A stretch of 64,000 nt of DNA from a virus (IMGVR_UViG_2861079508_000001), one strand, 5' to 3'. Shown: positions 23,745 through 55,804, numbered from the stretch's first letter. Program-made: numbers and translations. The notes: generated by a model not told the origin, from the letters alone.

Positions 23745-23776
23745 GTTTACTGCATTTTCTAACCAACTTGTTTTCT
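23745..23776. promoter_or_regulatory. two copies of palindromic motif AACAA-N-TTGTT(TTCT)
   Basis: AAAACAACTTGTTTAC and AACCAACTTGTTTTCT upstream of terminase small subunit. Confidence 0.45.
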
Positions 23777-23790
23777 GGGTTGTTTAATTA

Positions 23791-23889
23791 GGTCTGGGCA
23801 TGTCTTATTAAGCCTGCTTCCGTATATATTTAATAAGTTACTTATTATTTATATATACAGAAGCAGGTCTTTAAATAAGCTCCCAGACC
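23791..23889. repeat. long imperfect palindrome (arms GCCTGCTTCCGTATATAT / ATATATACAGAAGCAGG), copy 1
   Basis: Inverted repeat read from sequence; near-identical arms recur at 47965-48035. Confidence 0.6.
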
Positions 23890-23891
23890 GA

Positions 23892-24158
23892 TTACATCAC
23901 CAGTAACTTCGCTTTGGCTCGACCTAAAGTGGTTAACCCAAGAGTTCGGCGGTGATAGCGATTGTCACTGCGTTGGCGCGTATGCCCTTTCTCCACAAGC
24001 CCCTTTTTTATCAGAGCGCGAATTGAGAACTGGATACTTTGCTTGGTTGTCTTGTACGGCAAAACTTCAAGCAATTCGTCCAGATCAAGTAGATAACCTC
24101 GCTCATAACCGAGATTGAGCGTTTTGATGATGTCCTTTTGTTTATCGGTTAACGTCAT
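23892..24158 (-). CDS. small basic protein, possible winged-helix DNA-binding protein
   Basis: 88 aa ORF, composition. Confidence 0.35.
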   Translation of the reverse strand: MTLTDKQKDIIKTLNLGYERGYLLDLDELLEVLPYKTTKQSIQFSIRALIKKGLVEKGHTRQRSDNRYHRRTLGLTTLGRAKAKLLVM

Positions 24159-24167
24159 GGCAAATCC

Positions 24168-25058
24168 TTATGCCGGTAAAGCAATTTCTAACGGTTTATC
24201 CAAAGGTTGTTTGTCGAATGCCAGCAGTGGCAGCGTGTCAGGCAGTCGACGACCAAAGTCAGGGTTTCGATACACCCCATACAACGGAGACGTAAAGCTC
24301 AGGTTGTGAATGTCCTTGAGCAACTTCACAATGCAGGCCTCGTCCACCAGACTGTCGGCAATGTCCTGAATCGTCGTGCCACGATTCCGCCCAGCTTTTG
24401 CCAGGGAACTGTTCTTGTGGTAGTCCGCCACCAGATCACGCAGTGCACGGCGACGACGAGACTCGCTCATTGCGAACAACTCTTTGACGATCGCCTCGTT
24501 ATCACCCGGGTCGGAACGGAAATGGCGCTGGAATACACGCAGTGCACTTTCATAGCTCTTCGGTCGCTCAGGGCGGATGAACTTAAACCCTGCTTTCATG
24601 GCGAAGGGATTGTATTTGCTCATCGAGGACTGGATCTCAATGATTGGCCGGTCATGCATCCTGCTAACCAGGTTAATCATTCGATAAGAGACGCCTACGC
24701 CACGATACTGAGTATCCACAACTGAGCGACTGATCACCGCAAAGTTGTTATTCACGTACCGACCCCAGTACTGGTTAGCCACGGTGGTATTAGTGGTTGG
24801 TTTCAACTTAGGAAACATGCGGTGGCGAGGTGCCAACAGTAGTTTCGGGTAAGCCATAACCACGACGCCCACCAGACGGTCATCAAGTTCGCAGCGATAG
24901 TAAGTTGGCGCGAAAGGTTTGCCGTCTGTTTTGTAGTGAAGCGACTTAAGAGCGTGCCAGTCCTCTACAGTTCCCTTTGTAACAGTCATTCGCTCCAGAA
25001 AGTCCAGATGACGCGGAAACTCTTCAGGGCGGTAGCGTTTAATGATGATGTCCGTCAT
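24168..25058 (-). CDS. GNAT-like acetyltransferase-fold protein with C-terminal extension
   Basis: YRGVGVSYRMI and NPFAMKAGFKFI resemble GNAT motifs A and B. Confidence 0.45.
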   Translation of the reverse strand: MTDIIIKRYRPEEFPRHLDFLERMTVTKGTVEDWHALKSLHYKTDGKPFAPTYYRCELDDRLVGVVVMAYPKLLLAPRHRMFPKLKPTTNTTVANQYWGRYVNNNFAVISRSVVDTQYRGVGVSYRMINLVSRMHDRPIIEIQSSMSKYNPFAMKAGFKFIRPERPKSYESALRVFQRHFRSDPGDNEAIVKELFAMSESRRRRALRDLVADYHKNSSLAKAGRNRGTTIQDIADSLVDEACIVKLLKDIHNLSFTSPLYGVYRNPDFGRRLPDTLPLLAFDKQPLDKPLEIALPA

Positions 25059-25720
25059 GAATGGACCTCATCGTGACTACCATTGTGATATTCCACCTTC
25101 ACGCGTTCTTTGTAGTGCTTGGTGATCTGCATATCCGGGCGCAGCGCGTTCTTCAGGTCTTCGTGAGTCGTCGCCACCATTACCGTCGCACCAACCTTTC
25201 GAGCGGCACGCTGGAGGTTAGACGCCACAACCTGAGCGGTTACACGGTCGAGAACAGCGCCGAACTCGTCAGCAGCCCACACTTTAGCGCCTGACTCAAT
25301 CAGTTTGGCAATCTTGAGACGATATTTCTGGCCGTCTGACATTTCAGAAGGCTTGCGAACAAACAGATATGCATCGTTCAGACCAGCCATAGATAACAAC
25401 CCAAGCGCATCACTGGTCGTTTTGCCCAACTGATCGATGACGTTAACCTCATTATCGAAGGTAAAATCATCGATGGAGGCTACAGACAGCCCTTCATCCT
25501 TCATCTGTCGTTGCAACTCGCGCAGCACAACGGATTTGCCGGAACCGGATTGGCCGGTGATGTACACCACATCGCCCTGCTTCACTTCCAGCTCCAGATT
25601 GTCGTAAAGCGTCCACTCTTTTTCGTCCAGGCCAAGCCCGAACGACTCAGCGATTTCCAACGTGCGCGTGGTTTTATTTACGCGTGTCTGAAACGATACG
25701 TTGATGATGTATTTGCTCAT
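25055..25720 (-). CDS. stand-alone ABC-type ATPase
   Basis: Walker A GQSGSGKS, signature MSDGQKYRL, Walker B VWAADEFG, H-loop TTHED. Confidence 0.65.
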   Translation of the reverse strand: MSKYIINVSFQTRVNKTTRTLEIAESFGLGLDEKEWTLYDNLELEVKQGDVVYITGQSGSGKSVVLRELQRQMKDEGLSVASIDDFTFDNEVNVIDQLGKTTSDALGLLSMAGLNDAYLFVRKPSEMSDGQKYRLKIAKLIESGAKVWAADEFGAVLDRVTAQVVASNLQRAARKVGATVMVATTHEDLKNALRPDMQITKHYKERVKVEYHNGSHDEVHS

Positions 25721-27083: not shown

Positions 27084-27087
27084 TAAG

Positions 27088-27112: not shown

Positions 27113-27147
27113 AAATAACATACAAAAGGCACTAAGGAAAGAGGTTT

Positions 27148-28707
27148 ATGACTGTTCGGATTGTATCTAACGCAGTAAATGCGCTTATTTCTGGCGCAGA
27201 TGACAAGGTAAAGCAACTGGTGCAGCAAATGTTGAGCTACGAAGTCGAGACTGGCGACTGGAAGGGCACAAGCACGATGTTCAACTGGAGTAAAAACTCG
27301 TTCCCTGCTGGCTTTGCCAAGCCTGTAGCGGCGAACTTGAACAAGGCGGGCATCAAATGTGTTCATATCCGCAAAGACAAAGCCCCGGCGCTTGGTAAAC
27401 CAAATCCGGCGGTTAACCCATTCCCATACAATCCTGATTATGCGTATCAGGATCAGACTGTGGAAACACTGGTTCGAGAGGGAATGATGATTGCGCAGAT
27501 CGCTACTGGTGGCGGGAAATCTAACGTTGCCTGCAAAGCAGCTGCACGTATCGGTCGAATGACATTATTTTTAACAACCCGCTCTGTTCTGATGTTTCAA
27601 ATGGCCGAAAACTTCCAGAGATCCATCGACTACCGCGCCGAAAATGGCGAACCGTGGTTAAAAGACCAAAAGGTTGGAGTCATTGGCTCGGGTGAGTTCC
27701 AGGTATCACGACATATCAACGTCGCTACAGTTCAAACTCTTGCAAGTTTCCTCGAAGAACCACCACGCGATGCAACACCAGATAAGAAAAGCTACCACCT
27801 CAAACGTCGGGAGTTGGTGAAACGCTTCCTTTCAAGTGTCTCTCTTCTTATTCTGGAAGAGGCGCATGAGTCTTCAGGCTCAAATTTCTATGACATCGCC
27901 AGATTATGTGTGAACGCAGACTATCGTCTGGCGCTTACAGCCACGCCGTTCATGAAGGATTCGACGGAAGCCAACATGCGCCTGATGGCGGTGGCCGGGC
28001 GAATTGAAATTAAAGTCACAGAAAAGTACCTGATTGATCGAGGCATTCTGGCAAAGCCGTACTTCCTTTATCATAAAGTTGCCTACAAGCCAGACGAGGC
28101 CAGAATCAAGGCCGAACTTGCCAACAAACACCTCAATTTTAGAGTTGGTATGAGCACCGCCTACCAAAAGGCTTATCAGTTGGGGATCGTGTATAATTTG
28201 GGACGTAACGAGGCCATTGTTCGCGAAGCATTGCTCTATAAGCAACATTCTCTCAATTGTATGACTCTGGTTCGTCTTAAACGCCACGGGCAAATCCTGA
28301 TGGAAATGATGAAAGAGTCCGGCCTTAGAGTTGACTTCATCTATGGGGAATCTAACCAGGCGACAAGGCAAGCAAAGCTGAACAGTTTAGCGTCTGGAGA
28401 AATAGATGTTTTAATAGGCTCGACTATTCTGGATGTCGGTGTTGATGTGCCAAGCGTTGGTGCGGTCATTCTTGCTGGTGGTGGGAAAGCAGAAGTTGAA
28501 ATGAGGCAGCGTGTCGGTCGTGGCTTACGAGCCAAAAAAAATCAGGCAAACGTGTGTTTTATCACTGATTTCATTGACATTAGCAACAAATACCTGTTGT
28601 CTCACTCTTATGAGCGAAAACACATCATCGACACCACACCTGGCTTTGCAGAAGGTGTATTGCCTATTGATGGAGCATTCGATTTTGGAGTTCTGAAACG
28701 AGATTAG
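27148..28707 (+). CDS. SF2 DEAH-box helicase
   Basis: Walker A TGGGKS, DEAH-like LEEAHE, motif III LTATP, motif VI QRVGRGLR. Confidence 0.75.
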   Translation: MTVRIVSNAVNALISGADDKVKQLVQQMLSYEVETGDWKGTSTMFNWSKNSFPAGFAKPVAANLNKAGIKCVHIRKDKAPALGKPNPAVNPFPYNPDYAYQDQTVETLVREGMMIAQIATGGGKSNVACKAAARIGRMTLFLTTRSVLMFQMAENFQRSIDYRAENGEPWLKDQKVGVIGSGEFQVSRHINVATVQTLASFLEEPPRDATPDKKSYHLKRRELVKRFLSSVSLLILEEAHESSGSNFYDIARLCVNADYRLALTATPFMKDSTEANMRLMAVAGRIEIKVTEKYLIDRGILAKPYFLYHKVAYKPDEARIKAELANKHLNFRVGMSTAYQKAYQLGIVYNLGRNEAIVREALLYKQHSLNCMTLVRLKRHGQILMEMMKESGLRVDFIYGESNQATRQAKLNSLASGEIDVLIGSTILDVGVDVPSVGAVILAGGGKAEVEMRQRVGRGLRAKKNQANVCFITDFIDISNKYLLSHSYERKHIIDTTPGFAEGVLPIDGAFDFGVLKRD

Positions 28708-28709
28708 TT

Positions 28710-28988
28710 ATGAGCGAAAAGAAAACAACTTATTGTCAGGTAGCATTGTCTGATAAGGCCAATGACAAACTTGGAAAGTTTCAAGTGAAACTAAAAGAAA
28801 AAAATATCAAAATGTCTAAGGCTGAAGTCATAAATACCATTCTGGAACAATTGACAATGGCCGACTTTGACAAGGTTATATCTTCTGTCGGGGCTTCCGC
28901 TAAGACTCGTGAGAAAATCATGCGTATCTATGAGAACTCTAATATGACAAAGGAAGATCTCGAAACGCTATTAAGCAGATTAAAATAA
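28710..28988 (+). CDS. hypothetical protein
   Basis: 92 aa ORF, translationally coupled to helicase. Confidence 0.4.
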   Translation: MSEKKTTYCQVALSDKANDKLGKFQVKLKEKNIKMSKAEVINTILEQLTMADFDKVISSVGASAKTREKIMRIYENSNMTKEDLETLLSRLK

Positions 28989-29014
28989 TCACGCTATCAA
29001 TTAGGGAGACAAAG

Positions 29015-29479
29015 ATGAAGTCTCCCATACTGTTCACTTTCTGTTCTAAAACTATCATGAAATACTCGCTTCTCCCTCTACTAACGTTACCAGTGTTGAT
29101 GCTTACCGCGTGCCAATCACGCCCAATATCAATCCATGACGCCAAACCAGCACCGCAGGCCAAAGTGTTCAAGTATCAAAGCGCAGCGCCAGCTACGTTG
29201 GTGGTAATGAGAGACACAGGTTTTGTAGGAGCTGGATGTGATGCTTCCATTTTCATCAACGGCGAAACTGTCGCAAAACTGGCTACAGGCGAAAAAGCGA
29301 CTTTCCATTTAAATGCCGGAGAATTAATTGTGGGTGCATCTCTTGAAGGTGCAGGTTTATGTGCTCTAAACCCCGCTCGTCAAGAGCGAGAAACGACTCT
29401 GAAGAATGGAGACACAAAAGCGTTCAGGGTGTTCACCAGCAATTCTGGTGACATCGACATTCTGCCAACAACTCTGTGA
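29015..29479 (+). CDS. lipoprotein (candidate superinfection exclusion protein)
   Basis: Signal peptide with lipobox LTAC; start may be internal Met (MKYSLL). Confidence 0.5.
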   Translation: MKSPILFTFCSKTIMKYSLLPLLTLPVLMLTACQSRPISIHDAKPAPQAKVFKYQSAAPATLVVMRDTGFVGAGCDASIFINGETVAKLATGEKATFHLNAGELIVGASLEGAGLCALNPARQERETTLKNGDTKAFRVFTSNSGDIDILPTTL

Positions 29480-29483
29480 TGAC

Positions 29484-30008
29484 ATGACAACCAAAGATAT
29501 TACCTACGGTATCCAAGCTGAACTCTGGCCGCGAGATTACACTAACGTTGAAAAACTACTGATGTTCTGGCGCAGAGAACAAATTCCTGTAAGGGTCACT
29601 CTCGAAGATGGCCAGGCGTTTTGCATGTACGTTTATGGCCTCATGCCATCTCGTAACAAAGTTGACCTTTGCCCAGCCCCTTTTGACAAAGAAAATCGTA
29701 TAAGGCTCCCACTTGAACGCATTAGTACAATTGAATCAGGTGTGGTTGACAGTATCGCTCACGATTTCAAAGGTCGACTAACAGTTCACCCTGATTATGT
29801 CGATAATCGGCCATCACGCCGCGATTTTTTTGCAATTTGCAACCAAGCCTACAAAGCAAACAAATCTATAAGGGTGTACATGGCGGATGGCCGTGAAATT
29901 GAGGGGGTGTCAGCAGGCGCAGATGCTTGTCAGGTTACACTACGTGTCGAGAACGGTAGAAAAATAGTTGTTTTGTTCGATTGGGTTGAACGAATTTTGC
30001 CTTTTTGA
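29484..30008 (+). CDS. hypothetical protein
   Basis: ORF 29406-30008 trimmed to first non-overlapping ATG (MTTKDITYG). Confidence 0.4.
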   Translation: MTTKDITYGIQAELWPRDYTNVEKLLMFWRREQIPVRVTLEDGQAFCMYVYGLMPSRNKVDLCPAPFDKENRIRLPLERISTIESGVVDSIAHDFKGRLTVHPDYVDNRPSRRDFFAICNQAYKANKSIRVYMADGREIEGVSAGADACQVTLRVENGRKIVVLFDWVERILPF

Positions 30009-30011
30009 GTT

Positions 30012-30320
30012 ATGAAATCGATATTGTTACCACCATTATTTTTACTTTGCTCAGTTACGGCAAATGCAATGGACTATAAGCCTGTCATTCAGTCGCTGAT
30101 GAATGACGTGTGCTCAACGTCTCAGAATGTATCAGTTTGCATGTATCAATTTTCGGCAGCCGTAAAAGCAGGAAAAGCGATAGGTGAGAATGTGGAACTG
30201 TGTAAGAAAGTGGCAAATGAAGAAAGGGCAATGTTGGATTGCGAATCTAGCGAGTCATCGGCACAGTTCGTTGATGCGCTATTTGACACCAATCGTAAGG
30301 CTGTAGAGTCTGTTCAATAA
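30012..30320 (+). CDS. secreted Cys-containing small protein
   Basis: N-terminal signal peptide ending ANA; 6 Cys. Confidence 0.45.
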   Translation: MKSILLPPLFLLCSVTANAMDYKPVIQSLMNDVCSTSQNVSVCMYQFSAAVKAGKAIGENVELCKKVANEERAMLDCESSESSAQFVDALFDTNRKAVESVQ

Positions 30321-30333
30321 ATCTATAAGGTTA

Positions 30334-30362
30334 ATAACCGGCTAAGTCCGGTTATTATTTTT
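30334..30362 (+). terminator. intrinsic terminator
   Basis: Hairpin ATAACCGG-CTAAGT-CCGGTTAT followed by T-run. Confidence 0.6.
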
Positions 30363-30509
30363 CACATCACTTCTTTATATCTACAAATCAAATAACCTAA
30401 ATATATATAAGGTCTAAAGCCGCAATCGATTATTTATTTAGGGAACACCTTCGACGATCTCGCTTTTATTTCTAGGACTTTCATCCCTGCAAAAAATTTT
30501 AAAAAACAC

Positions 30510-30538
30510 TTGCAATCTATTTTCGCGTATCGATAATT
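30510..30538 (+). promoter_or_regulatory. sigma70-like promoter (TTGCAA - 17 bp - GATAAT)
   Basis: Hexamers and spacing read from sequence, about 65 bp upstream of the 30603 ORF. Confidence 0.5.
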
Positions 30539-30602
30539 GAGCTCGTCGAAAGCGAAGACGCTAACGACAATAAATTTTAAATTTACATAAGGAAAAATTA
30601 TC

Positions 30603-31253
30603 ATGGCTAACATTATCATTTCTAAAAAATCCATCATTGAAGCTGCTTCCATTGTATCCGATGAACTGCGCGAAAAAGCAGATCTGGCAACTCAAACATA
30701 TAACGAACATTATAAAAATGGTACGCACACTAAAGCAGACAAAGCAAATATGCAAGCTGCGACCACTAAACTTGCTTACTTCATCAACAACGTCGTAAAC
30801 GCAGTAGAAGACGAAAAATTATGCTCTGTTTTCTACTATGCGATTAAAGCAAGCAAACAAGCGCCAGAAGTATTTTTCCGTGATGCAATGACTAATAGTT
30901 ATTCTCTGGAAAAACTGGTTTATCTGGTTAAATCAATTAAATCTGGTAAATGCGTTTATTCCATCGCTGATATGTCAGGATCTCGTGTATTCGCTTTAAT
31001 CGATATGATTAACGACGAGATCGACACGTTCACCAATGGCGCTGTTTTCGATTTAATGAATGAAGCTAAAAAAGCGTGCGAAATTAAATTGGACGCTGGC
31101 TATACTCAAGCCAACCAGTTGATCAATCTTTGCGAACGTCTTGGACTTGTTGAGAAAGTCAAAGGAATGGGAAGCGCAAAAGCTGGTACACAGCAATATC
31201 GCTTTATCAAGAATGATTTCTACAATTATTTAGCTGATGCTTTTAAAGCGTAA
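30603..31253 (+). CDS. hypothetical protein, AT-rich codon usage
   Basis: 216 aa ORF with RBS; composition differs from flanking phage genes. Confidence 0.5.
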   Translation: MANIIISKKSIIEAASIVSDELREKADLATQTYNEHYKNGTHTKADKANMQAATTKLAYFINNVVNAVEDEKLCSVFYYAIKASKQAPEVFFRDAMTNSYSLEKLVYLVKSIKSGKCVYSIADMSGSRVFALIDMINDEIDTFTNGAVFDLMNEAKKACEIKLDAGYTQANQLINLCERLGLVEKVKGMGSAKAGTQQYRFIKNDFYNYLADAFKA

Positions 31254-31265
31254 TTAATGGAATCA

Positions 31266-31283
31266 AGCGCCCACTATGGGCGC
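31266..31283 (+). terminator. hairpin AGCGCCCACTATGGGCGCT (copy 1, weak T-run)
   Basis: Inverted repeat; identical hairpin recurs at 31764-31782. Confidence 0.35.
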
Positions 31284-31303
31284 TTTAAAGGAGCTTTAAA
31301 AAA

Positions 31304-31507
31304 ATGGTCAGCTATGACAAGATCCGCGCAAAGTATCGCGCAAAGTATCGCGCTTATAAACTGGAATTAATCGATGATTTGATCGCGCAACGCGACCAAT
31401 TAAATTTTACGTTTTCTGATTTGCTTAACAGCAAGCGAGATTGCAAGCGCAAACGTGAATACTTACGTTTAAGCGCATTAATCGGAAAACTTCAAAATTC
31501 TATTTAA
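31304..31507 (+). CDS. hypothetical small protein (low-complexity N-terminus)
   Basis: 67 aa ORF containing a 12-bp tandem repeat. Confidence 0.3.
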   Translation: MVSYDKIRAKYRAKYRAYKLELIDDLIAQRDQLNFTFSDLLNSKRDCKRKREYLRLSALIGKLQNSI

Positions 31508-31528
31508 TTTTTTTTAAGGAGCTTAATC

Positions 31529-31759
31529 ATGTTTGTTCTTATCGCTGGCGTTAACGTCCATAATGAATATTATGTTAATCGCATCGCTGGGATCGCTGGT
31601 TACGCTGGGCGCGCAGTCGAGCTTATAGATGAAACGACGCGCAAAATTGACTTATTGAGCGACCAGGAGCGAAAAAAAGCAGACGTGAACGACGCTGATA
31701 TATTTTTAATGTTAAAAGCGTTTGTAGAAATGGGATTTAAAATCAGTTTACACAAATAA
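31529..31759 (+). CDS. hypothetical small protein
   Basis: 76 aa ORF with RBS AAGGAG. Confidence 0.35.
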   Translation: MFVLIAGVNVHNEYYVNRIAGIAGYAGRAVELIDETTRKIDLLSDQERKKADVNDADIFLMLKAFVEMGFKISLHK

Positions 31760-31763
31760 AATC

Positions 31764-31789
31764 GAGCGCCCACTATGGGCGCTTTTTTT
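31764..31789 (+). terminator. intrinsic terminator (hairpin AGCGCCCACTATGGGCGCT plus T7 run)
   Basis: hairpin followed by TTTTTTT. Confidence 0.65.
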
Positions 31790-31810
31790 CGTTTCCAATA
31801 CACCTACCAT

Positions 31811-31838
31811 AACGCGCCATCATTGGCGCGTTTTTATT
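31811..31838 (+). terminator. intrinsic terminator (AACGCGCCA-TCAT-TGGCGCGTT plus T-run)
   Basis: hairpin and T-run read from sequence. Confidence 0.55.
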
Positions 31839-32244
31839 GTCTTTAACTCACTCCAACAACATAAAAATAAGCGCCAAAATAACGCCATAGACGCGCTTTT
31901 ATATCCTTACCAGTACATGCCCATTACTTAACACATTAACGCGCTTAAAACGCATTATATTGCGCTATAGAGTATGGTTAATCATTGGCTTTTAGTCTTG
32001 CTATGTGATCCGCGTTTATTTGTCGGTGCGGATCGGCATTTTGTTTTGTTCTGTATCCGCTCGCGTATTATGTGCGCGTAATTTTTCACATAATCACACC
32101 ACTTAATCACGTATGTGATTATGCTACGAAAGAAATCTGGATGTCTCAGGCGACGAAAGTCATCATAATTTCCCCCGCTCACCTGTCCGACAACCGCTGG
32201 TTGGATTCCACCAGCTTCCCGATGTTTTTTCTACACAAAGGCGA

Positions 32245-32375: not shown

Positions 32376-32858
32376 TTACACGCCATCAAGGATGTGGATG
32401 CGGTTGCTTGCGTATACATTCAGCATAAAGTTAGCGCAAAACAGTTTCCATGTATCAACGCCAGCGGTATACGTAATGTTTTTGCATTTAATTGCATTGT
32501 TGGCGATCCGCATCCCCTGCGATACTGCTTCATCGTCGGAAAATTTGAACGACGATTGAGTTTTAATCCAGACAGAAATCTGCGTAGCGAACTCAATCAG
32601 CTTGGACTGGCAGAATCGCCCGGAGCGCACCGGAAGGACGAACGTTCCGAATCCAGAATTTACCACATATGCTTTCTCAAATACCCGCGAGTAACGACGA
32701 TTGCCAATGATGTCGCGTGCAATAATGCATTTTTCTTGTGCTGACAGTTCTACCGTCTCATTGTCGCGCCATGCACCAAGTACTCGTTTTTCAATGTCAG
32801 AGAACGTTACAGCGATATTGCCATGTGCGGGTGCGTTTACAGTAGCGATAAAATTCAT
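32376..32858 (-). CDS. hypothetical protein
   Basis: 160 aa ORF preceded by promoter and motif. Confidence 0.5.
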   Translation of the reverse strand: MNFIATVNAPAHGNIAVTFSDIEKRVLGAWRDNETVELSAQEKCIIARDIIGNRRYSRVFEKAYVVNSGFGTFVLPVRSGRFCQSKLIEFATQISVWIKTQSSFKFSDDEAVSQGMRIANNAIKCKNITYTAGVDTWKLFCANFMLNVYASNRIHILDGV

Positions 32859-32876
32859 GATTAATTCCTTATCGTA

Positions 32877-32933
32877 AATAACAAATTGTTTTCTTGTTGG
32901 TGTTAATTATCGTTGTACGAATAAGGCGTCAAA
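32877..32933 (-). promoter_or_regulatory. sigma70-like promoter (TTGACG - 16 bp - GATAAT) with downstream AACAA-N-TTGTT motif
   Basis: Hexamers on minus strand; palindrome between -10 and RBS. Confidence 0.5.
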
Positions 32934-33208: not shown

Positions 33209-33625
33209 TTACCACCAGGCGCAGAAGGTCAGTCTGTTATTGTGAAAGTCGTGGTTCTTAATCAGATCTTCCACAAGCTCTTTCAACTGCCCCACATCAT
33301 GCCAGTAACCTTCGTCGTACTCCTGACTGCCGAAGAAAAAACCTTCCCGAGTAGGCAAGTACTCTTCGCAATTGCTTTCGTTTATGTGCATCAAATGAGC
33401 TTTCAGAAGACAAATGTCATTCATCGTTAATTCTAAAAGCTCACAATTTTCGACTTCACCTACGTTGCGCTCCATCCACCCAACGAGCGCATTGAACTTA
33501 CGGAAGTAAGCAACCTGCTTTCTGGATGCCTCGTTATTCAGATCGTTTTTAGGCTGTGTCTCGATATAGATATCAAGTCCCATGATGGTTTCCTTATTAA
33601 CTTGCTTCAGTAAAATCATTTTCAC
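33209..33625 (-). CDS. hypothetical protein
   Basis: 138 aa ORF; likely true start a few codons inside. Confidence 0.45.
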   Translation of the reverse strand: MKMILLKQVNKETIMGLDIYIETQPKNDLNNEASRKQVAYFRKFNALVGWMERNVGEVENCELLELTMNDICLLKAHLMHINESNCEEYLPTREGFFFGSQEYDEGYWHDVGQLKELVEDLIKNHDFHNNRLTFCAWW

Positions 33626-33666
33626 AAATCAGATAAGGCAGAAAACAAATTGTTATCTGGCTTAAT

Positions 33667-33692
33667 AAAATGGCGCGGTTTACGCGCCATTT
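33667..33692. terminator. intrinsic terminator hairpin (AATGGCGCG-GTTTA-CGCGCCATT)
   Basis: Hairpin flanked by A/T runs, immediately after a TAA at about 33701. Confidence 0.5.
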
Positions 33693-34221: not shown

Positions 34222-34533
34222 TCAGGCTATTGCCATCACTGATGCTCTCTGAATTTCTTGCTGGGCCACGCGGTTAACTTCCATCAAGGCCAGTTCGAGC
34301 TGATGTTCCGGCCACATTCTTTGAAACGCCATCCAGCCTTTTCCACGCTGGCGACGAACATTCATTACATAACGAGTAAAGGTGTTTTTATCGAAAGACA
34401 CCGCTGTTTCACGGAACAGACGAATAGAGGTTCCATTGGCAACGATGTCCAGCAAAGTTAATTGAGCAACCAGCGCAGGCTTCTCTTTTCTCTTCTGGTC
34501 TTTGTCCAGACCAAGAACCAATGATTTTTTCAT
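34222..34533 (-). CDS. hypothetical protein
   Basis: Start at MKKSLVLG with RBS GGAG; motif AAACAACTTGTTTTCT immediately upstream. Confidence 0.5.
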   Translation of the reverse strand: MKKSLVLGLDKDQKRKEKPALVAQLTLLDIVANGTSIRLFRETAVSFDKNTFTRYVMNVRRQRGKGWMAFQRMWPEHQLELALMEVNRVAQQEIQRASVMAIA

Positions 34534-34544
34534 CACAACTCCGT

Positions 34545-34560
34545 AAACAACTTGTTTTCT
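34545..34560. promoter_or_regulatory. palindromic motif AAACAACTTGTTTTCT
   Basis: between -10-like TATTAT and RBS of downstream gene. Confidence 0.45.
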
Positions 34561-34687
34561 CAATGGCGTAAATAATACCAATAAGAAAACGGCTACAAAG
34601 CATAATGATCAGGTGCATGAGCGATATGCAGGTTCTTCCCTGCGGCTACAGATTAAGTTAAGCCAGCAATGCTGGCTTTGGTTGGGA

Positions 34688-35017
34688 TTACGCGAATACC
34701 TCAAGAAACTCCTGAACGTCCCAATGCTGGACGAGGTGAAGATAGACCTTAGAAATCACGTCATTTTCGCTATCGCATGTGAAGTAGTACTTCTGGCTGC
34801 GGTTGTATGTGTCCACACAAAATTCGCTCATATCCATAAAGTCAGCATCATCACCCAGGTCGCTAATCATCAAAGCAGGTGCATCATCACGAGTCATCAG
34901 CTCCAGCACCCATCTTGAATTAATCAGAGTGGAAGACCAACCTTCCAGCTCATAAAACTGGTCAAACTCTTTTTGAGTCAATTTCTTAATTTGGTTGATG
35001 TCGATATTTGCAAACAT
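34688..35017 (-). CDS. hypothetical acidic protein
   Basis: Start at MFANIDINQ with RBS AAGGA. Confidence 0.5.
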   Translation of the reverse strand: MFANIDINQIKKLTQKEFDQFYELEGWSSTLINSRWVLELMTRDDAPALMISDLGDDADFMDMSEFCVDTYNRSQKYYFTCDSENDVISKVYLHLVQHWDVQEFLEVFA

Positions 35018-35029
35018 AAAGCAATCCTT

Positions 35030-35045
35030 AAACAAGATGTTTTCT
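35030..35045. promoter_or_regulatory. palindromic motif AAACAAGATGTTTTCT
   Basis: between -10-like GATAAT and RBS. Confidence 0.45.
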
Positions 35046-35379
35046 TAATGGTGTTATTATCGCAATAACGCACAGGCGAAAAAGGATTTTATTCCGGTGA
35101 ATGTGGTTTTGGCAGTGAGTTTTCAGGTTCAGTACAGAGTACACTTTTTACATTATTCTGATTTAGTGGCCGAAGATGGCTGGTGGGCAGAATAATCATC
35201 TCCCCGAAAACCTACTGAAATCGATTGTGACCCGTTGGCTGTCTGGCACAATTACGCTGTAACTGGGCATTCAGAGGGAATCCAGCGGTAAGTAGGTTCG
35301 CCTTCACGTGAGCGCCTCTCTTCTTCCCGCACATTACAGGTGGGTAGCCGCAACTCTCCCTCTCGCTATGCCGGTACGC

Positions 35380-37523: not shown

Positions 37524-37528
37524 CTCCT

Positions 37529-37593: not shown

Positions 37594-37633
37594 AGAGTTT
37601 GTTAAAGTCAGAAGGGGTTGTGTCTATATGAAA

Positions 37634-42351: not shown

Positions 42352-42412
42352 GTGTTTTTCTCTTATCGTTTAGTAACTACATTCTTACATAAATTAAGTA
42401 AGCATTTACCTA

Positions 42413-44098
42413 TCATTTAACGCGTTTGAAAACGTATACGCTGACTGTGATCCCTGTGTCTTCAAACTCGTTGGTAAACGACTTCCCTCTGGCATAAACG
42501 TAATTATCCATCGTCATCCAGTCCAGTATTGGCGCAGTGCCCGGCAATACTGCTACAAGACGCCCGCCGACTTTCAGATGCCCCAGCGCAGCCAGCGTGT
42601 GCTCTCTATGACGACCAAGCGAGTACGGCGGGTTCATAACGATTTTGTCGAACTGATAACCTGCGTTGTCCTCAGACCACTTTATGAAGTCGCAGCAAAT
42701 CGTGTTCGTATACCCTTTTCCACGCAGGATATCAGCGAAGAGAGGTGCGATTTCTATGCAGGTAACATCTTCCAGATCGGCGTCAATATAGGCCAGAAGA
42801 TCCCCACGTCCGGCTTGAGGCTCCAACAGCTTCTCACCAGGCTTCAATTCAGTGGCTCTTGCAACGTACTCAGCAATCAAGCGTGGGGTAGGGTAGAACT
42901 GGTGTGATTTTGTATCCGGTATTAAACCGGTAGCCACAATCGTATTTAGCGTATGGCCGATGTCATACGGGAACTGCCAGTGCTTTTTCTCCTGCACGCC
43001 GCCAATGAAGCTCAGTGTGCGCTCAAGCTCTTCCACCTGCGACTTCTGGAGAGCTGAATCAGAGAAGTACCATACACCTTTGTCTTTGCTCAATCGCCCG
43101 TCACGAAGCGCAGTGCGAACCGGCACGGAGATCGTCTTCTGGATTAAACCGAACTGCTTTGGTGCCCGTGTTTTTGGCGCAGTTCGGCATGGCGCGGGGA
43201 TTGCAGCAGGCATACTGTAAGCCAGCACCTCATTCAACTTCCAGGCCACGTCAGGATGTATTTCAAAGTGAACGTTGCCGTTCTTGAACATCTTCACGCG
43301 CATCAGATTTCCATCGACGTTCATCCAGTCACCGGTCTGGCAGTCGTTTGCCCGATACGCAGCTGATAGCACCTCAGCAGTGCGGTTGATGGTAATAAAT
43401 TCTTTGTGCGCGAAGAAATGAAGCAAGACACGCAGATCGTCGATGTAGTCCTCTTTGCGATAGTTCACGCTAACGCTGTCCCGCCAGAAATCAGAAATGC
43501 AGTCAGCGATTATCAGCCGCTCGCTGAAACCATTTGTCTTATTTGTCTTGTGCACAGGACTCAGCGCCTTAAACAAGCCATACACGCGCTCAGAGAGATA
43601 TTTGTGCCTGTCATTCAGCAAATTAAGCATCGTGGGTATGACCGTTTCTGCTTTGAACTCCGGTACACCAACGAACTCTTTAACCTTCATCTGGTAGCCG
43701 GTTCTGTCAGTTTTGATGACTTCCTGTTTGCCCTCTATAAACTGCTCGCGCCACTCATCTCGACGGGAAGCTGGCATGATCAGCAAAACGTTAGTCATGT
43801 CCGTGACCTTCCTCCAGTACTCGGCCCAAATATTCTGTTTCACCCATTCCAGATCGACTTTATCCAACCAACCTCGATTTAAACGCGAGCGATCTTCATC
43901 TGGTCGATGGTTTAGTTTCAGCAGGCGATTAATCATGTTGTGGCGTTCGTCGCCATAAACGAAGTTGTGAACCTGATACATGAAGGCGATCTCTTTCTCG
44001 CACTCGGCCACAATTTCGTGGATAACGTTCATTTCCTGACGATAATCGATAGCAGTGTTTGAGCTGGCATCGTCGATGATGGAAAGGGCTGTATTCAT
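42413..44098 (-). CDS. N6-adenine DNA methyltransferase with large N-terminal domain of unknown function
   Basis: C-terminal motifs FYPTP, EPQAGRGD (AdoMet binding) and NPPY (catalytic). Confidence 0.65.
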   Translation of the reverse strand: MNTALSIIDDASSNTAIDYRQEMNVIHEIVAECEKEIAFMYQVHNFVYGDERHNMINRLLKLNHRPDEDRSRLNRGWLDKVDLEWVKQNIWAEYWRKVTDMTNVLLIMPASRRDEWREQFIEGKQEVIKTDRTGYQMKVKEFVGVPEFKAETVIPTMLNLLNDRHKYLSERVYGLFKALSPVHKTNKTNGFSERLIIADCISDFWRDSVSVNYRKEDYIDDLRVLLHFFAHKEFITINRTAEVLSAAYRANDCQTGDWMNVDGNLMRVKMFKNGNVHFEIHPDVAWKLNEVLAYSMPAAIPAPCRTAPKTRAPKQFGLIQKTISVPVRTALRDGRLSKDKGVWYFSDSALQKSQVEELERTLSFIGGVQEKKHWQFPYDIGHTLNTIVATGLIPDTKSHQFYPTPRLIAEYVARATELKPGEKLLEPQAGRGDLLAYIDADLEDVTCIEIAPLFADILRGKGYTNTICCDFIKWSEDNAGYQFDKIVMNPPYSLGRHREHTLAALGHLKVGGRLVAVLPGTAPILDWMTMDNYVYARGKSFTNEFEDTGITVSVYVFKRVK

Positions 44099-44110
44099 AA
44101 TTACACCATT

Positions 44111-44126
44111 AAATAATTTGTTTTCT
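44111..44126. promoter_or_regulatory. palindromic motif AAATAATTTGTTTTCT
   Basis: immediately upstream of methyltransferase gene. Confidence 0.45.
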
Positions 44127-44239
44127 GATTGGTGTAATTATCGCAAACTTGAAAAGGCATAAAAGCTGCATTCATAGGCGTTACAGCAGATTTAAGGCGT
44201 AAAAATGGGGGCTGTCGCCCCCTGTCGACTGGTGCTGTA

Positions 44240-44806
44240 TTAGAGTGCGTATTGCGTTTTGTGCGGCTGCTTATTCAAGTCATGGCGATGCGTGAGCTCC
44301 CGCATCATGTCTTCAAGGCGACTCTTTGTGTCGTCGAGCTGGTCGGCCATTGCACCTAAAAGCTGGCGAACGGCCATCGGATCGTCGCTGTTTAGTGATG
44401 GCATTTTAGAACCTGCTTTAGAAGACATAAGGTTGATTGCAGACATCAACATCGTTAGAGAGGATTTAAGCCCGGCAATTTCACGATCTTTGCTGGCAAT
44501 AATCGTCTCACTTTTGTTACCGTCATCAGTTTCTTGAGTCTCGCTCACCATATCCAAAGTCGCTTGCAACTTATCAGCTCTCTCTTTTTCAGCAAGGTAA
44601 TGAACACCGAAATGGTGTGCCAAAGCTACAATCTGAGTTGGCTCTTCAAAGGTGGAATTAAAATTAAGTATTGTAAACAGTCTCTCAAATATGGAAACGT
44701 CTTCTATTCCTCGAAGAATGGCTAACATTTTGACCAGTTCATTAGCATCCATTTCTTCGAATAAGGCGTTTTGTTCATCAGCTATCGCTTTGCATTTCTT
44801 GCACAT
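44240..44806 (-). CDS. hypothetical protein
   Basis: 188 aa ORF with motif upstream. Confidence 0.45.
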   Translation of the reverse strand: MCKKCKAIADEQNALFEEMDANELVKMLAILRGIEDVSIFERLFTILNFNSTFEEPTQIVALAHHFGVHYLAEKERADKLQATLDMVSETQETDDGNKSETIIASKDREIAGLKSSLTMLMSAINLMSSKAGSKMPSLNSDDPMAVRQLLGAMADQLDDTKSRLEDMMRELTHRHDLNKQPHKTQYAL

Positions 44807-44824
44807 GTGTTTTTCCTAATGCTT

Positions 44825-44840
44825 AAACAAGTTGTTTTCT
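44825..44840. promoter_or_regulatory. palindromic motif AAACAAGTTGTTTTCT
   Basis: upstream of 44240-44806. Confidence 0.45.
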
Positions 44841-45103
44841 TATTGTCTTTATTGTGATGTGGCATAAAAGGGGAGCAAGCTAAACGTAAAGGTGCAAACT
44901 CTCTATTTCGGTCAACGAAACACAAGGGCCATTTGGCCCTTGTCATTAACACTTTGCTTTACGAACTAACGGATAAGCGAAGTAGATCGCCAAACCAATG
45001 AGGACGCCATCAGAAATGACAGACATCATCTTTCCCGTAAAATCCACCAACACCGCCATCACCAGAAGAGCAATGACGATCACAAGCCGGAATCTCTCAA
45101 GCA

Positions 45104-45529
45104 TTAGAGATAAGCATCCAGTGACAACTGAAGCGCCTGGGCGATCTTTTTCAGTGCCTGCTCTTCTTGTTCACCAATGCCGTCCTGATCGGCAATATCA
45201 AGGCACAGACACAGAACATCGACCGCCTCTGGAGTACCCGCAATATCAGACAGCTCACGAATAGCCTGTGCATTAGCAGAACGAGGGGACGCTTCGTAAC
45301 GAGCACGGATATTGGCGCTCATTTGGGCAATTTCACCAGCAAACGGAGAAAACGCAGGCAGAGCTGCAATTGTCTTCTCAAGAATGGCAATTTCTTTTGC
45401 GTCACATGTGCCGTCGGCATAGGAGATCATGTACGCGCCCCACACGGTGGCCTCAACCGCATCACGGTTCTCCATTTTTTTGACTTCGATAACAGCTTTA
45501 CGAGTTTTCTTTTTGAAGAAACCTAACAT
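45104..45529 (-). CDS. TerB-like domain protein (putative)
   Basis: 141 aa, weak resemblance to TerB/DUF533 helical fold. Confidence 0.35.
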   Translation of the reverse strand: MLGFFKKKTRKAVIEVKKMENRDAVEATVWGAYMISYADGTCDAKEIAILEKTIAALPAFSPFAGEIAQMSANIRARYEASPRSANAQAIRELSDIAGTPEAVDVLCLCLDIADQDGIGEQEEQALKKIAQALQLSLDAYL

Positions 45530-45552
45530 GTGCTTTCCTTTTATTATTTGTC

Positions 45553-45569
45553 AAAACAAGTTGTTTTCT
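45553..45569. promoter_or_regulatory. palindromic motif AAAACAAGTTGTTTTCT
   Basis: upstream of 45104-45529. Confidence 0.45.
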
Positions 45570-45622
45570 AATTACATAAATTGCTTACGCAGAGATGGTC
45601 AATGCATATGCACTAACAGCCG

Positions 45623-53508: not shown

Positions 53509-53555
53509 TTATTCATTAAGTGAGTTTACATTTATTGAGGGAACAAGGCCAGATA

Positions 53556-53574
53556 GATAAAAAAATGGTGGCCA
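53556..53574 (-). terminator. intrinsic terminator
   Basis: Hairpin TGGTGGCC-ATA-GGCCACCA followed by T-run on minus strand. Confidence 0.6.
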
Positions 53575-53652
53575 TAGGCCACCAAAAACGAATAGTTGTT
53601 TCAGAAATTTAACGCGCCAGCGCAATATACACAGATAGATAACTACCTACAA

Positions 53653-54522
53653 TTATTTTTTGATCATTCCGTACATTGCTGAGGCTTTAGCTTGCTCAAC
53701 AAAGGAGGATAAATCGACATCACTATAGGTTGGAGACTTCAGAATCTTTCCATCGGAAATTCGAAAACCGATCATCTTATCGGTGCCATCAGCATGGCGA
53801 AATCCCAGGTCAGAAGAGTCGTATTTGCAGTTGGCCACAGCATGGCGACGCTCTTCGGCATCTGCAGGCCATAATTTTGTCATGTTGGACCGATGAATTT
53901 CGCCAACCAGCTCGACGACATTGATACCGAGAAAATCAGCCAGTCGATAAGTCATCATGCACGCCACATAGATTTTGTTCATTACACGGCGCAGTTCCTG
54001 AATCAGCTCAGAATCCTTAACAGTCTTCTTCTCAAGTTTATCTGCCAGCTCTTCGAGCATACATGACGCCTCACGAGCTTCCTGAAATGGCATTGCCATA
54101 TCATCGAAAACAGTGTTACCAGGCACAAAAATTGTCTGCATAAAGCGATCAATGCTCTGTTCCTGCGTGTAATAAGTCATGCCGGTAGAAATACCACCTT
54201 TGATGGCGACCATCGTACCAACACCAACGTATAAAAAGTCGGCCATTGCATCCAGCAGTTGCTCAATATCCCCATTCATTGCGGCTGGAATACCTTCCAC
54301 TACAGCTTCTTCATGAATCAGGCTTGCACGGAGACGAAGCAGCTCTGGTGTCGGCATAACGCGTCTCGGATGCTGGAAGAGTTCATGAAACTGATCGACC
54401 ATCTTGTAAATACTTTCAGTGGCTACACCATGGCCTTCATGCAATTCATATGGTTCTGGCTTAAATCCAATGAGTCGATCGGTGGCAAGTTTCAGGTGGT
54501 CAGTCAGTTTGGTAAAGTTCAT
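53653..54522 (-). CDS. MazG-like nucleotide pyrophosphohydrolase (putative, tandem domain)
   Basis: EE..E...D helical NTP-PPase-like motif (HEEAVVEG ... DIEQLLDAMAD). Confidence 0.45.
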   Translation of the reverse strand: MNFTKLTDHLKLATDRLIGFKPEPYELHEGHGVATESIYKMVDQFHELFQHPRRVMPTPELLRLRASLIHEEAVVEGIPAAMNGDIEQLLDAMADFLYVGVGTMVAIKGGISTGMTYYTQEQSIDRFMQTIFVPGNTVFDDMAMPFQEAREASCMLEELADKLEKKTVKDSELIQELRRVMNKIYVACMMTYRLADFLGINVVELVGEIHRSNMTKLWPADAEERRHAVANCKYDSSDLGFRHADGTDKMIGFRISDGKILKSPTYSDVDLSSFVEQAKASAMYGMIKK

Positions 54523-54599
54523 GCTAGTTTTGTTCCTTCTTAATTCTTGTGATCCATTGTGGCCCAGCGTTGCCAGGCCACATAATGCTTTGTATCGGT

Positions 54600-55742
54600 T
54601 TACAGGTCTGCAAACTGGCTTAGAGAAGCCTTATCCACGGTAGAATCGATCTGACCTACCAGATATGTGCTTTGCTCTGCCTCTTGTGGTGCAATTTGCA
54701 GTGTGTCGGTTAACAACCACTTGTTCATCCAGACCAGCGGGTCAGTGGTAACTTCTGGAAATAAAGCCTTCAGGCCAAGACGATTCATAGCCAGATTGGT
54801 GCGGTATTTTACATAGGTTTTGAGAATATCCGCGTTTAAACCAATCATCGAACCGTCTTTGAAGAGATAGTCTGCCCAGTTCATTTCTTGTTCGGCGACT
54901 GATTTCATGGTGTCGTAAATGACGTTTTCTTCATCAGCAGCAATCTCTTTCCACAATAAACCTTCGCGACCGGTACGCATGAAGCGGATCATGCGTTCAG
55001 TTCCTTCGCAATGCAGAGCTTCATCACGGGCAATAAAGCGCATAATTTTGGTGTTACCCTCAAGCAACTTCCGTTCACCAAAGGCAAACGTACATGCAAA
55101 ACTTACGTAGAAACGGATCGCCTCAAGCGCATTAATGGACACCAACGTGCGGAAAAGCTGACGATGCAAAGGGTATGGCTCCCAGCCATATTCATTTACG
55201 TACAGACGCTCAAATTCCTTCTCACCTAACGACTGGCGCTCGCAGGTCATCCCATAAAGCCTGTCATATTCAGCAGAGATACTGATCGCTCGGTTGATGA
55301 TTTCTTCATCCGTAACAATACCGTCAAAAACAATGCTCGGATCGTCCACCATGCCACGAATAATGTGGGTGTAGCTGCGGCTATGGATAGTCTCAGAGAA
55401 AGACCACGTTTCAACCCACGTTTCCAGTTCAGGAATAGAGATAAGCGGCAGCAGCGTTGCATTTGGGCTACGTCCCTGAACTGAATCGAGTAACGTTTGA
55501 TAACGGAGATTGCTCAGAAAAATGTGACGTTCGTGGTCCCGCAGCTTCGTGTTGAAGTCGATACGATCGCTCGAAATATCAACTTCTTCCGGCCGCCAGA
55601 AGAAAGACAATTGACGTTCAATCAACTTTTCAAAATCACGGTATTTTTGCTGATCGTAACGTGCCACGTTGACAGATTGTCCGAGGAACATAGGCTCTTT
55701 GGTTGCATCATTAGCACCCAAACGGAACGTTGAATATGACAT
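54600..55742 (-). CDS. nrdB: ribonucleotide reductase class Ia beta subunit
   Basis: About 70 percent identity by recall to E. coli NrdB over full length; start at MSYSTF. Confidence 0.9.
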
Positions 55743-55772
55743 GTGTTTTTCCTTTTTCTTTTTTATGTGTTT

Positions 55773-55804
55773 AAACAAGTTGTTATCTTATTTGTTTAAA
55801 CAAG
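55773..55804. promoter_or_regulatory. palindromic motif AAACAAGTTGTTATCT plus GTTTAAACAAGG
   Basis: between nrdA and nrdB. Confidence 0.4.

Follow-up and report, generated by a model that had tools for sequence, protein, structure and literature searches.

A palindrome dispersed through an SSU5-type phage-plasmid

The sequence analysed here is a 64,000-nucleotide viral stretch (IMGVR_UViG_2861079508_000001, hereafter the window, numbered from its first letter), in which a palindromic motif recurs between positions 23,745 and 55,804. Over the 20 kb around the motif, the window shares 98% identity with Escherichia phage CMS-2020a, 97% with the phage-plasmid Cyrano (pLF82 of E. coli LF82) and ~82% with Salmonella phage SSU5, the more remote matches being Klebsiella phage-plasmids; by sequence comparison, the element is an SSU5/pHCM2-type phage-plasmid. 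Its gene blocks, assigned through the Cyrano annotation, comprise structural and packaging genes on the minus strand (1 to ~23.7 kb), a ParB-like operon followed by a plus-strand island (24-32 kb), and a long minus-strand series of accessory and DNA-metabolism genes (32-64 kb).

The word AAACAANTTGTTT (also written AAACAAnTTGTTT) is found with at most one mismatch 14 times in the window against 0.35 expected, a count reached in none of 100 shuffles, and the exact half-site AGAAAACAA 13 times against 1.25 expected. A symmetric 21-nt weight matrix gave bimodal scores, with 16 window sites of at least 14 bits, 15 sites of at least 18 bits and leave-one-out scores of 16.8-26.2 bits, whereas 200 dinucleotide shuffles produced a mean of 0.29 and a maximum of 2 matches of at least 14 bits. 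The motif, for which the original prediction had asked enrichment over shuffled controls (found here at 16 against 0.29), is real and highly non-random.

A complete site reads AGAAAACAAnTTGTTTTCT; in full, the palindrome spans 19 bp, AGAAAACAA-n-TTGTTTTCT, around a free central base; sites are given below as 21-mer windows, the centre being the middle position. Two orientation classes can be distinguished: O1, which on the minus strand mostly reads (A/T/C)AGAAAACAAnTTGTTTA, and the mirrored O2, ...AAACAAnTTGTTTTCT. In both, the complete 9-mer is the half turned toward the promoter; the outer AGA/TCT is mirrored between O1 and O2, and the C and G are mirrored within the dyad. Half-site mismatches (AAATAA, TTATTT, TTGGTT and ACATCTTG) are never compensated by the other half.

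Two classes of sites at extended -10 promoters

The O1 class, of about ten copies, lies between the -10 element and the ribosome-binding site (RBS), with its centre 13-38 nt ahead of the ATG and, at six promoters, 20-21 nt past the 3' end of the -10, which in five of the six is extended (TGnGATAAT, TGnTATTAT or TGnGAAAAT). No -35 element is recognisable at these promoters, and a scan for the -35/-10 consensus, which misses them, is uninformative here because they are promoters without a -35. Sites of the O2 class (centres 33649, 37586 and 41209) are mirrored and precede the promoter, each 31 nt ahead of its -10, and the O1-O2 distance is exactly 51 bp at two window promoters and three SSU5 promoters. 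Assuming a transcription start 7 nt past the -10, from which we infer the position of the start site, O1 would be centred at about +14 (spanning +5 to +23) and O2 at about -38. Two O2 copies lie 13 and ~40 nt past good terminators (hairpin plus T-run) of the upstream gene; placed beyond a terminator and ahead of the next -10, they are expected to be part of neither transcript. Promoter, operator and upstream terminator co-occur as compact modules of identical spacing.

This geometry refines the original prediction, which had put the copies immediately downstream of sigma70-like -10 hexamers and 10-20 nt upstream of start codons. Placement between the -10 and the RBS holds for the roughly ten O1 copies, at the distance from the ATG given above, and the -10 elements are present, mostly in the extended form TGnGATAAT without a -35; a third of the copies sit elsewhere, either as upstream, mirrored O2 sites or, at 23742, as the second of a pair. 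All the coordinates proposed fall within a few bases of real copies or half-copies. The list held 13 full sites, its entries at 36424 and 41159 are only half-sites (AGAAAACAA), and the copies at 36210-36230 and, on the plus strand, 28719-28739 had been missed.

Apart from the latter, all sites and target genes that follow are on the minus strand. Full O1 sites precede the open reading frame (ORF) 32376-32858 (site 32875-32895, 22.4 bits; -10 GATAAT at 32906-32911), ORF 34222-34533 (34541-34561, 27.0 bits; extended -10 TGGTATTAT at 34572-34580), ORF 34688-35017 (35026-35046, 21.9 bits; extended -10 TGCGATAAT at 35056-35064), ORF 37275-37523 (37525-37545, 24.1 bits; extended -10 TGAGATAAT at 37555-37563), the DUF4942 (methyltransferase-like) gene 42413-44098 (44107-44127, 24.3 bits; extended -10 TGCGATAAT at 44137-44145), ORF 44240-44806 (44821-44841, 24.8 bits), the TerB/TciA-like gene 45104-45529 (45550-45570, 24.5 bits) and nrdB (ATG at 55742; 55769-55789, 21.4 bits), the last site being kept in Cyrano (70332) and SSU5 (70225). 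An O1 half-site at 36416-36436 (AAGAAAACAACTGAATAACAG), with an exact AGAAAACAA, lies 1 nt after TACAAT and scores 9.4 bits as a full site.

The O2 at 33639-33659 (centre 33649, 26.6 bits; ..TTGTTTTCT toward the promoter) lies 13 nt past a terminator (hairpin 33672-33688) and 31 nt ahead of the point where the extended -10 TGTGAAAAT (33618-33626) ends at its 3' side; this promoter's own O1 is intact in SSU5 (pair 93668/93719) and degenerate in the window. The promoter carrying the O1 at 37525-37545 has its O2 at 37576-37596 (centre 37586, 26.2 bits), 51 bp from O1 and ~40 nt past a terminator (hairpin 37636-37654), and the same pair is present in SSU5 (88325/88376) and Cyrano (93120/93171). 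At the umuD-like gene (ATG ~41145), an O1 half-site at 41148-41168 (TAGAAAACAACGGAGTTAAGA) follows the extended -10 TGTGAAAAT (41178-41186), and a full O2 at 41199-41219 (centre 41209, 22.8 bits) stands 51 bp away, directly past a hairpin at 41216-41236. The umuD-like promoter of SSU5 is built alike, with a full O2 at 85608 and the same degenerate O1 half-site 51 bp on. In the window this gene, which encodes an S24 peptidase, is split by a fragment of the insertion sequence IS1 (~40975-41108, 99% identity), and gene content in this region differs between Cyrano and SSU5.

The leader of terS, the small terminase gene that opens the terminase operon, carries two sites 25 bp apart, then a hairpin with a T-run, then the RBS. 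Site A (23757-23777, centre 23767; CAGAAAACAAGTTGGTTAGAA, 20.9 bits) follows a -10-like TAATTAA (23784-23790) at a distance of 8 nt, and the 3' flank of site B (23732-23752, centre 23742; CAGTAAACAAGTTGTTTTAGA, 26.4 bits) forms the base of the hairpin next downstream (23715-23734; AGAGCGC-ATGGAC-GCGCTCT, then GTGTGTTTT). In relatives, two of the six stem pairs show compensatory double changes and other pairs change in a wobble-compatible way; the divergent Klebsiella lineage has, by eye, a different hairpin without a T-run at the same place. The hairpin resembles a terminator or attenuator, which suggests attenuation or antitermination control of the late genes. Upstream of the terS sites, the block TATATACGGAAGCAGG (~23813-23828, minus strand) is kept in the enterobacterial relatives examined, and Moellerella has, by eye, the similar block TATAAATACTATGGGAACTAGG; this may be a late-promoter element, of which the adjacent winged-helix-like protein of 88 amino acids, p88, would be the natural candidate reader.

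Two further copies are atypical. The site at 36210-36230 (centre 36220; ATATAAACAACTTATTTTCAG, 19.2 bits, 16.8 in leave-one-out) is O2-like by orientation only; it lies within or at the end of ORF 36094-36450, ahead of ORF 35988-36182, with a half-site-like AAAACAAC ~25 bp downstream, and has orthologues in Cyrano (94611) and SSU5 (90746). The plus-strand motif-like sequence at 28719-28739 (centre 28729, 19.0 bits) falls in the first codons of ORF 28710-28988 (+), is weaker in Cyrano (14.0 bits) and is absent at the homologous gene of a divergent Klebsiella plasmid; we regard this copy as doubtful and possibly a by-product of coding.

Conservation of the regulon in SSU5-like elements

Of the 18 strong sites in Cyrano, 15 are intergenic, although non-coding DNA makes up just 13% of the genome (P = 3e-11), and all stand ahead of co-oriented genes, namely terS (two sites), parA, the DnaB-like helicase gene, cobT, CYRAN_58, nrdB, the tciA-like gene and several small genes. 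SSU5 has ~21 strong sites at the same promoters. Around terS, both leader sites are invariant in 76 loci from IMG/VR, across 21 distinct leader variants, whereas the 8 nt that separate them are hypervariable. Alignments of eight orthologous promoters, with footprints over 24 variants of the 32875 site and 15 of the 34541 site and others at 35026 and 44821, place conservation in the -10 and in both half-sites, the central base and the flanks being variable. Half-sites conserved beyond the surrounding promoter around a free central base are the signature of contact by a dimer.

The divergent Klebsiella lineage (TerS 59% identical) uses the same motif, with 11 sites of at least 21 bits in 19 kb, and many of its promoters pair a full O2 with a half O1. 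Sites are also kept in Yersinia pestis pMT1. The relative from Moellerella, an enterobacterial host, has neither the regulon nor a site in the terS leader, and the regulon was not found in the 36 kb examined of an Acinetobacter relative. When viral contigs were scanned for AGAAAACAANTTGTTTA, multi-site loci appeared only in SSU5-like contigs, other matches being isolated and attributable to chance; loci that seemed to lie outside this group turned out to be accessory regions of 107-113 kb SSU5-like contigs. Taken together, these comparisons indicate that the motif is specific to the enterobacterial SSU5-like lineage. That lineage is widespread: homologues of TerS, of the Cyrano repressor-like protein CY45 and of the parA-linked protein CY29 each occur in ~800-950 PLSDB plasmids (Klebsiella, E. 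coli, Enterobacter, Salmonella), those of TerS and CY45 also in the pMT1/pFra plasmids of Y. pestis.

Positional conservation in related genomes, which the original prediction anticipated, thus extends to the same promoters in SSU5, the IMG/VR loci, Klebsiella and pMT1. The regulon itself is broader than the early and accessory genes, methyltransferase and nrdB named there, all of which stand; it also takes in the small-terminase and packaging operon and, in relatives, parA, the DnaB-like helicase gene and cobT.

Probable recognition as DNA and expression in the lysogen

As RNA, the motif folds into a hairpin of only -0.7 kcal/mol (z ~0), and Rfam returned no family matches at the sites. An RNA hairpin or a member of a known RNA family was rejected on these grounds and on the uncompensated mismatches, and the other half of the original proposal, a conserved leader element acting in the transcript, becomes less likely, the O2 sites lying upstream of the promoter. 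Since mismatches go uncompensated, the hairpin is negligible, no Rfam family matches, O2 stands outside the leaders and the dyad is exact, the motif is best understood as double-stranded DNA recognised by a symmetric protein.

Expression of the targets was read from the RNA sequencing (RNA-seq) data of the LF82 lysogen, in which the median prophage gene has a value of 9.8 (PMC9928086, supplementary file 2). In this data set (PMC9928086), values of 5-25, at background, were recorded for the genes that follow full O1 sites: CYRAN_1, 70, 85, 87, 90, 101, 103, 105, 106, 110 and 111. These low values occur despite near-consensus extended -10 elements. Such elements should be active by themselves. 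CYRAN_98, the umuD-like gene of Cyrano, reads 148, and the umuD-like promoters of the window and SSU5 combine a full O2 with a half O1. The parA operon, which has an O1 and a weak -10, reads 50/89/55 and is the sole motif-preceded operon clearly expressed. This pattern fits, without proving, repression by a factor of the lysogen graded by operator quality.

The palindrome as a probable repressor operator

We consider it probable that the palindrome is a double-stranded DNA operator for a dimeric repressor encoded by the element. Its enrichment, intergenic location, fixed distance to the -10, dyad symmetry, half-sites conserved independently of their surroundings, conservation in relatives and targets that are silent in the lysogen point to an operator, much as the original prediction proposed for a dimeric phage regulator, the element being a phage-plasmid rather than simply a phage; a regulator would bind there and repress.

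In mechanistic terms, the two half-sites would be read by a dimeric or higher-order DNA-binding protein of the phage-plasmid. The targets would mostly be sigma-70 extended -10 promoters without a -35, with O1 between the transcription start and the Shine-Dalgarno sequence. Since O1 and O2 are 51 bp apart, roughly five helical turns, they would lie on the same face of the DNA, and protein at O1, or bridging O1 and O2 across the -10, could block binding of RNA polymerase or its escape from the promoter. In the plasmid-prophage state this would silence some 16 transcription units of the window, or 18-21 in a whole genome, among them nrdB, the methyltransferase-like gene, many small accessory genes, the gene for the replicative helicase and the operon for terminase and packaging; weak or half operators, as at the umuD-like gene and parA, would permit expression.

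Several points weigh against this interpretation. The parA operon is expressed although it has an O1 site, so that a site alone does not mean silence. The RNA-seq evidence is one data set from a 97% identical relative, and low mRNA levels could equally come from post-transcriptional decay or from promoters that depend on an activator. Finally, the start sites are inferred positions, and the operator assignment is built on sequence, on comparisons and on that one RNA-seq set.

Candidate regulators

The best candidate for the binder, and a tentative one, is CYRAN_29 (CY29), encoded directly after parA (Cyrano 29975-30334; SSU5 31162-31518); the rest of the probability goes to other element-encoded proteins or a host factor. 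The ORF annotated in SSU5 (31231-31521) appears to start late, because the tblastn match begins at 31162, and the annotation of CYRAN_29 itself is 'RelE/ParE putative toxin'. The neighbouring CY28 comprises 222 amino acids, as calculated from its coordinates. By eye, CY29 looks like ParG or omega, with a basic tail, a short beta-strand (IKSRTMS) and two helices. Its gene is expressed in the lysogen as part of the parA operon. The protein is 93% identical in SSU5 and at least 90% identical in 735 of 796 plasmids. A homologue of ~52% identity, from a plasmid with the motif at both parA and dnaB, is conserved mainly in two blocks, the basic arm together with the predicted beta-strand (PVRPQGRPTRGK..IKSRTMS) and the beginning of helix 2 (FTRSDVIRAAI); the Moellerella homologue retains IKSRTVS and SRSDVFRAA. 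A site is present at the parA promoter of Cyrano (29265), SSU5 (30455), K. pneumoniae NZ_CP065827 (21.0 bits) and Moellerella (17.6 bits), where it is the best match of the 108-kb plasmid and falls in the 318-bp parA promoter region. CY29 also has a weak NCBIfam match to aCcr1, a small archaeal ribbon-helix-helix regulator (E = 2e-4; 21 bits, far below the cutoff of 60). The presence of sites and of CY29 agrees in the E. coli-type, SSU5, Klebsiella and Acinetobacter elements and disagrees in pMT1 and, partly, in Moellerella.

CY29 would then autoregulate its partition operon and, in this lineage, double as a global silencer in the manner of the plasmid regulators KorB and omega. A more specific and somewhat less likely version holds that the autoregulatory site of a ParG/omega-like protein was copied to about 20 promoters, where it silences replication, accessory and packaging genes and where the sites might double as centromeres. 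Moellerella, with a parA site only, would on that account preserve the ancestral state, and inheritance of the plasmid would be mechanically linked to the maintenance of lysogeny. The candidacy of CY29 is weakened by several observations: Pfam and PDB profile searches find nothing for its fold, its gene lies outside the window, pMT1 keeps the sites without it, Moellerella has a homologue with the parA site only and no regulon, Cyrano has a single site at parA and no repeat array as in type Ib centromeres, and, among the few lineages examined, the presence of the regulon tracks a FljA-like gene better than CY29.

That gene (29487-30008, plus strand) encodes a FljA-family protein (PF03614; Pfam E = 2.5e-84) with two tandem Sm/Hfq-like domains, so folded in structure prediction, and is the other candidate trans factor. 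All relatives with enough sequence have it, it is expressed in the lysogen, and its alleles are 59-100% identical among otherwise near-identical relatives. That a FljA-family tandem-Sm protein reads the motif, and that the flagellar phase-variation repressor of Salmonella is a domesticated phage-plasmid regulator, seems to us quite unlikely. The plus-strand island around the gene (28000-32000) has a low G+C content (0.38-0.44) and also carries a UvsW-like helicase gene, a CYRAN_117 homologue and a lipoprotein-like ORF; ~29.0-30.3 kb of the window has no Cyrano match at the megablast level.

Other candidates were set aside. The CYRAN_117 homologue (28710-28988, plus strand; 92 amino acids), with a lysogen expression of 114, is ribbon-helix-helix-like by eye only; it found no Pfam or PDB profile support, its monomer model has a predicted local distance difference test score of 55, its identity is 34% whether or not the lineage compared has the regulon, and the motif copy in its own first codons is not conserved. 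The CYRAN_123 homologue p88 (23892-24158, minus strand), directly upstream of the terS leader, is well conserved and matches LexA_DNA_bind weakly over its full length (E = 0.07); Moellerella, which has neither the regulon nor the terS-leader site, shares exactly the same predicted recognition helix. The small regulon genes were rejected as autoregulators, Pfam finding no DNA-binding domains in them. CY45, an XRE-type 'putative repressor' beside the Cyrano integrase, outside the window, occurs in 864 plasmids; its own divergent control region lacks the motif and carries another palindrome, GGTAAGTGCTTACC, and phage SSU5 keeps ~21 sites without the CY45 gene. SSU5 has no detectable homologue of CYRAN_43-46 (Cyrano 40268-43038, the module of integrase and XRE 'putative repressor'), and, since CY45 homologues are found in 864 related plasmids, SSU5 may be a derivative that lost this repressor.

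CY45 probably belongs to a second family of dispersed palindromes, ~ATAGGTAAGnnCTTACCTAT, unrelated to the main motif. The word GTAAGNNCTTAC with at most one mismatch occurs 6 times in the window (20288, 27087, 34140, 42398, 46449 and 58213) against 1.13 expected. Copies in Cyrano are at 22452, 42607, 45267, 57450, 67887, 77440, 79655 and 84624, most of them just past a stop codon in the gap that separates two co-oriented genes; the ParB-like/UvsW divergent region holds one copy and the CY45 control region the perfect one. The Acinetobacter relative (L311) has the variant TAGTAAGnnCTTACTA at five places read as intergenic (10982, 14474, 21806, 29442 and 35838). These palindromes may be operators of CY45-type repressors, and, from their distribution, the family looks older and more widespread than the main motif.

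Alternative explanations

An alternative that acts on RNA, which we judge unlikely, holds that the FljA-family protein recognises the sequence AGAAAACAAnUUGUUU at the leaders' 5' end, immediately ahead of the Shine-Dalgarno sequence, and would thereby block translation and destabilise the mRNA, like Salmonella FljA on the fliC leader. In the motif an A-rich stretch precedes a U-rich one, the kind of sequence bound by the faces of Hfq, and O1 fills the gap between the inferred start and the RBS. The candidate gene, with its tandem Hfq-like fold, expression in the lysogen and presence in all relatives with enough sequence, is suited to the role, FljA being known to act post-transcriptionally on fliC mRNA (PMC2652032). 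Regulon and FljA-like gene occur together in the E. coli-type, SSU5, divergent Klebsiella and pMT1 elements and are both absent from Moellerella and from the 36 kb of the Acinetobacter relative; this co-occurrence, however, rests on only two lineages without both features. The position of O2 argues against an RNA target: it is as well conserved as O1, yet lies before the promoter and after terminators, so that it should be in neither mRNA, and the divergent lineage has a full O2 and only a half O1. In a single-stranded RNA, moreover, the exact dyad and the mirrored outer AGA/TCT would have no reason, and the FljA-like protein falls to 35% identity in a lineage whose motif is unchanged. That the motif is the natural target of FljA was rejected, as the fliC leaders share just CAAGTTGT with it and score 0.4 bits in Salmonella and -1.4 bits in E. 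coli; real sites reach 19-27 bits.

A second alternative dispenses with a dedicated regulator: a terminator-promoter cassette would have spread by duplication or recombination, and the motif would be conserved for the promoter itself or for a host protein, functioning as initial transcribed sequence, AT-rich upstream element or binding site of a nucleoid protein such as IHF, Fis or H-NS. The compact modules of promoter, operator and terminator with their identical spacing would fit such a cassette, and the occurrence of the same motif in Escherichia, Salmonella, Klebsiella and Yersinia elements would suit a host-factor site, as would the loose likeness of its core to the IHF consensus. Against it, the half-sites at orthologous promoters are more conserved than the surrounding promoter, with a free central base, and mirrored half-sites persist on both sides of the -10; the multi-site loci in viral contigs are all SSU5-like, the Moellerella relative lacks the regulon in an enterobacterial host, and the target genes are silent, not active. 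We regard this explanation as very unlikely.

Highly improbable, finally, is that the sites are primarily dispersed partition sites for ParA and CY29, with any effect on transcription secondary. Phage-plasmid N15 offers a precedent in its four separate palindromic centromere sites, IR1-4 (PMC7205306); a parA-promoter site is present in each lineage with a CY29 homologue, Moellerella included, and no obvious repeat array beside parA could serve as a conventional centromere. The fixed distance to the -10 (+14, -38) at nearly all copies is, however, operator-like rather than centromere-like, and pMT1 has sites without CY29. This role overlaps with that of a repressor operator and does not exclude it.

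Further features of the window

In the tail-gene region, Rfam identified an ALIL pseudoknot (11455-11571, plus strand; 120 bits), the frameshift signal of IS3-family transposases. As the match falls in a stretch of raised G+C (0.54 at 10-12 kb), an insertion sequence probably sits at this locus.

Comparison with known systems

The motif words were not found in the papers searched, nor was any account of how the lysis-lysogeny or plasmid programme of SSU5/pHCM2-type elements is wired. As far as we found, the regulon and its promoter-operator module are previously undescribed in this widespread phage-plasmid family, and the kind of system is known. The motif maps a regulon of about 20 promoters and a compact, portable module consisting of an extended -10 and O1, with or without O2. 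An identity with the LexA/SOS box, the palindrome CTGT-N8-ACAG, was rejected, as the sequence of the sites differs.

The flagellar FljA-fliC system of Salmonella shares with the element a protein of the same Pfam family, and O1 is placed just before the Shine-Dalgarno sequence like the FljA target; it differs in that fliC leaders lack the motif (0.4 bits), whereas here O2 is not in leaders and the dyad is of DNA type. In the pairing of operators that bracket a promoter in helical phase, the modules resemble lac O1/O3 and gal OE/OI, lac O1 being centred at +11; the present spacing of only 51 bp is far shorter than those classical loops, and cooperativity is putative here. A close phage parallel is offered by the C1 operators of P1, likewise a temperate phage-plasmid with one operator dispersed at DNA-metabolism, accessory and late-control promoters. 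P1 C1, however, is monomeric and its 17-bp sites are asymmetric, whereas the sites here are 19-bp palindromes at +14 and -38; because the site is palindromic, the regulon is not a member of the P1 C1 system.

Plasmid regulators provide the other comparison. KorA and KorB of the IncP plasmid RK2 and omega of pSM19035 similarly act at many promoters of a single replicon, where they read a short palindrome or repeat. They are encoded in a partition or stability operon, autoregulate it and co-repress replication and other functions. The KorB sites are 13-bp palindromes with a free central base, like the core of the motif here. These are, however, systems of conjugative or Gram-positive plasmids and not of phages, and KorB is a ParB-type helix-turn-helix protein that often acts at a distance, whereas the candidate here is a putative binder of ParG/omega-like fold, itself weakly supported. 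ParG/parH autoregulation has been described for type Ib partition systems such as that of plasmid TP228 (PMC3130281). Such systems have a small ParA without an N-terminal DNA-binding domain, followed by a basic-tailed ribbon-helix-helix protein, ParG, with an operator at the par promoter, an arrangement to which the proposed parA-CY29 pair would correspond. The parH of these systems is an array of tetramer boxes by the operon, whereas the present element has a single palindrome at parA and about 17 more elsewhere. Should the binder prove to be the partition-operon protein, the SSU5-like elements would provide a clear case of segregation machinery controlling the lytic programme of a phage.

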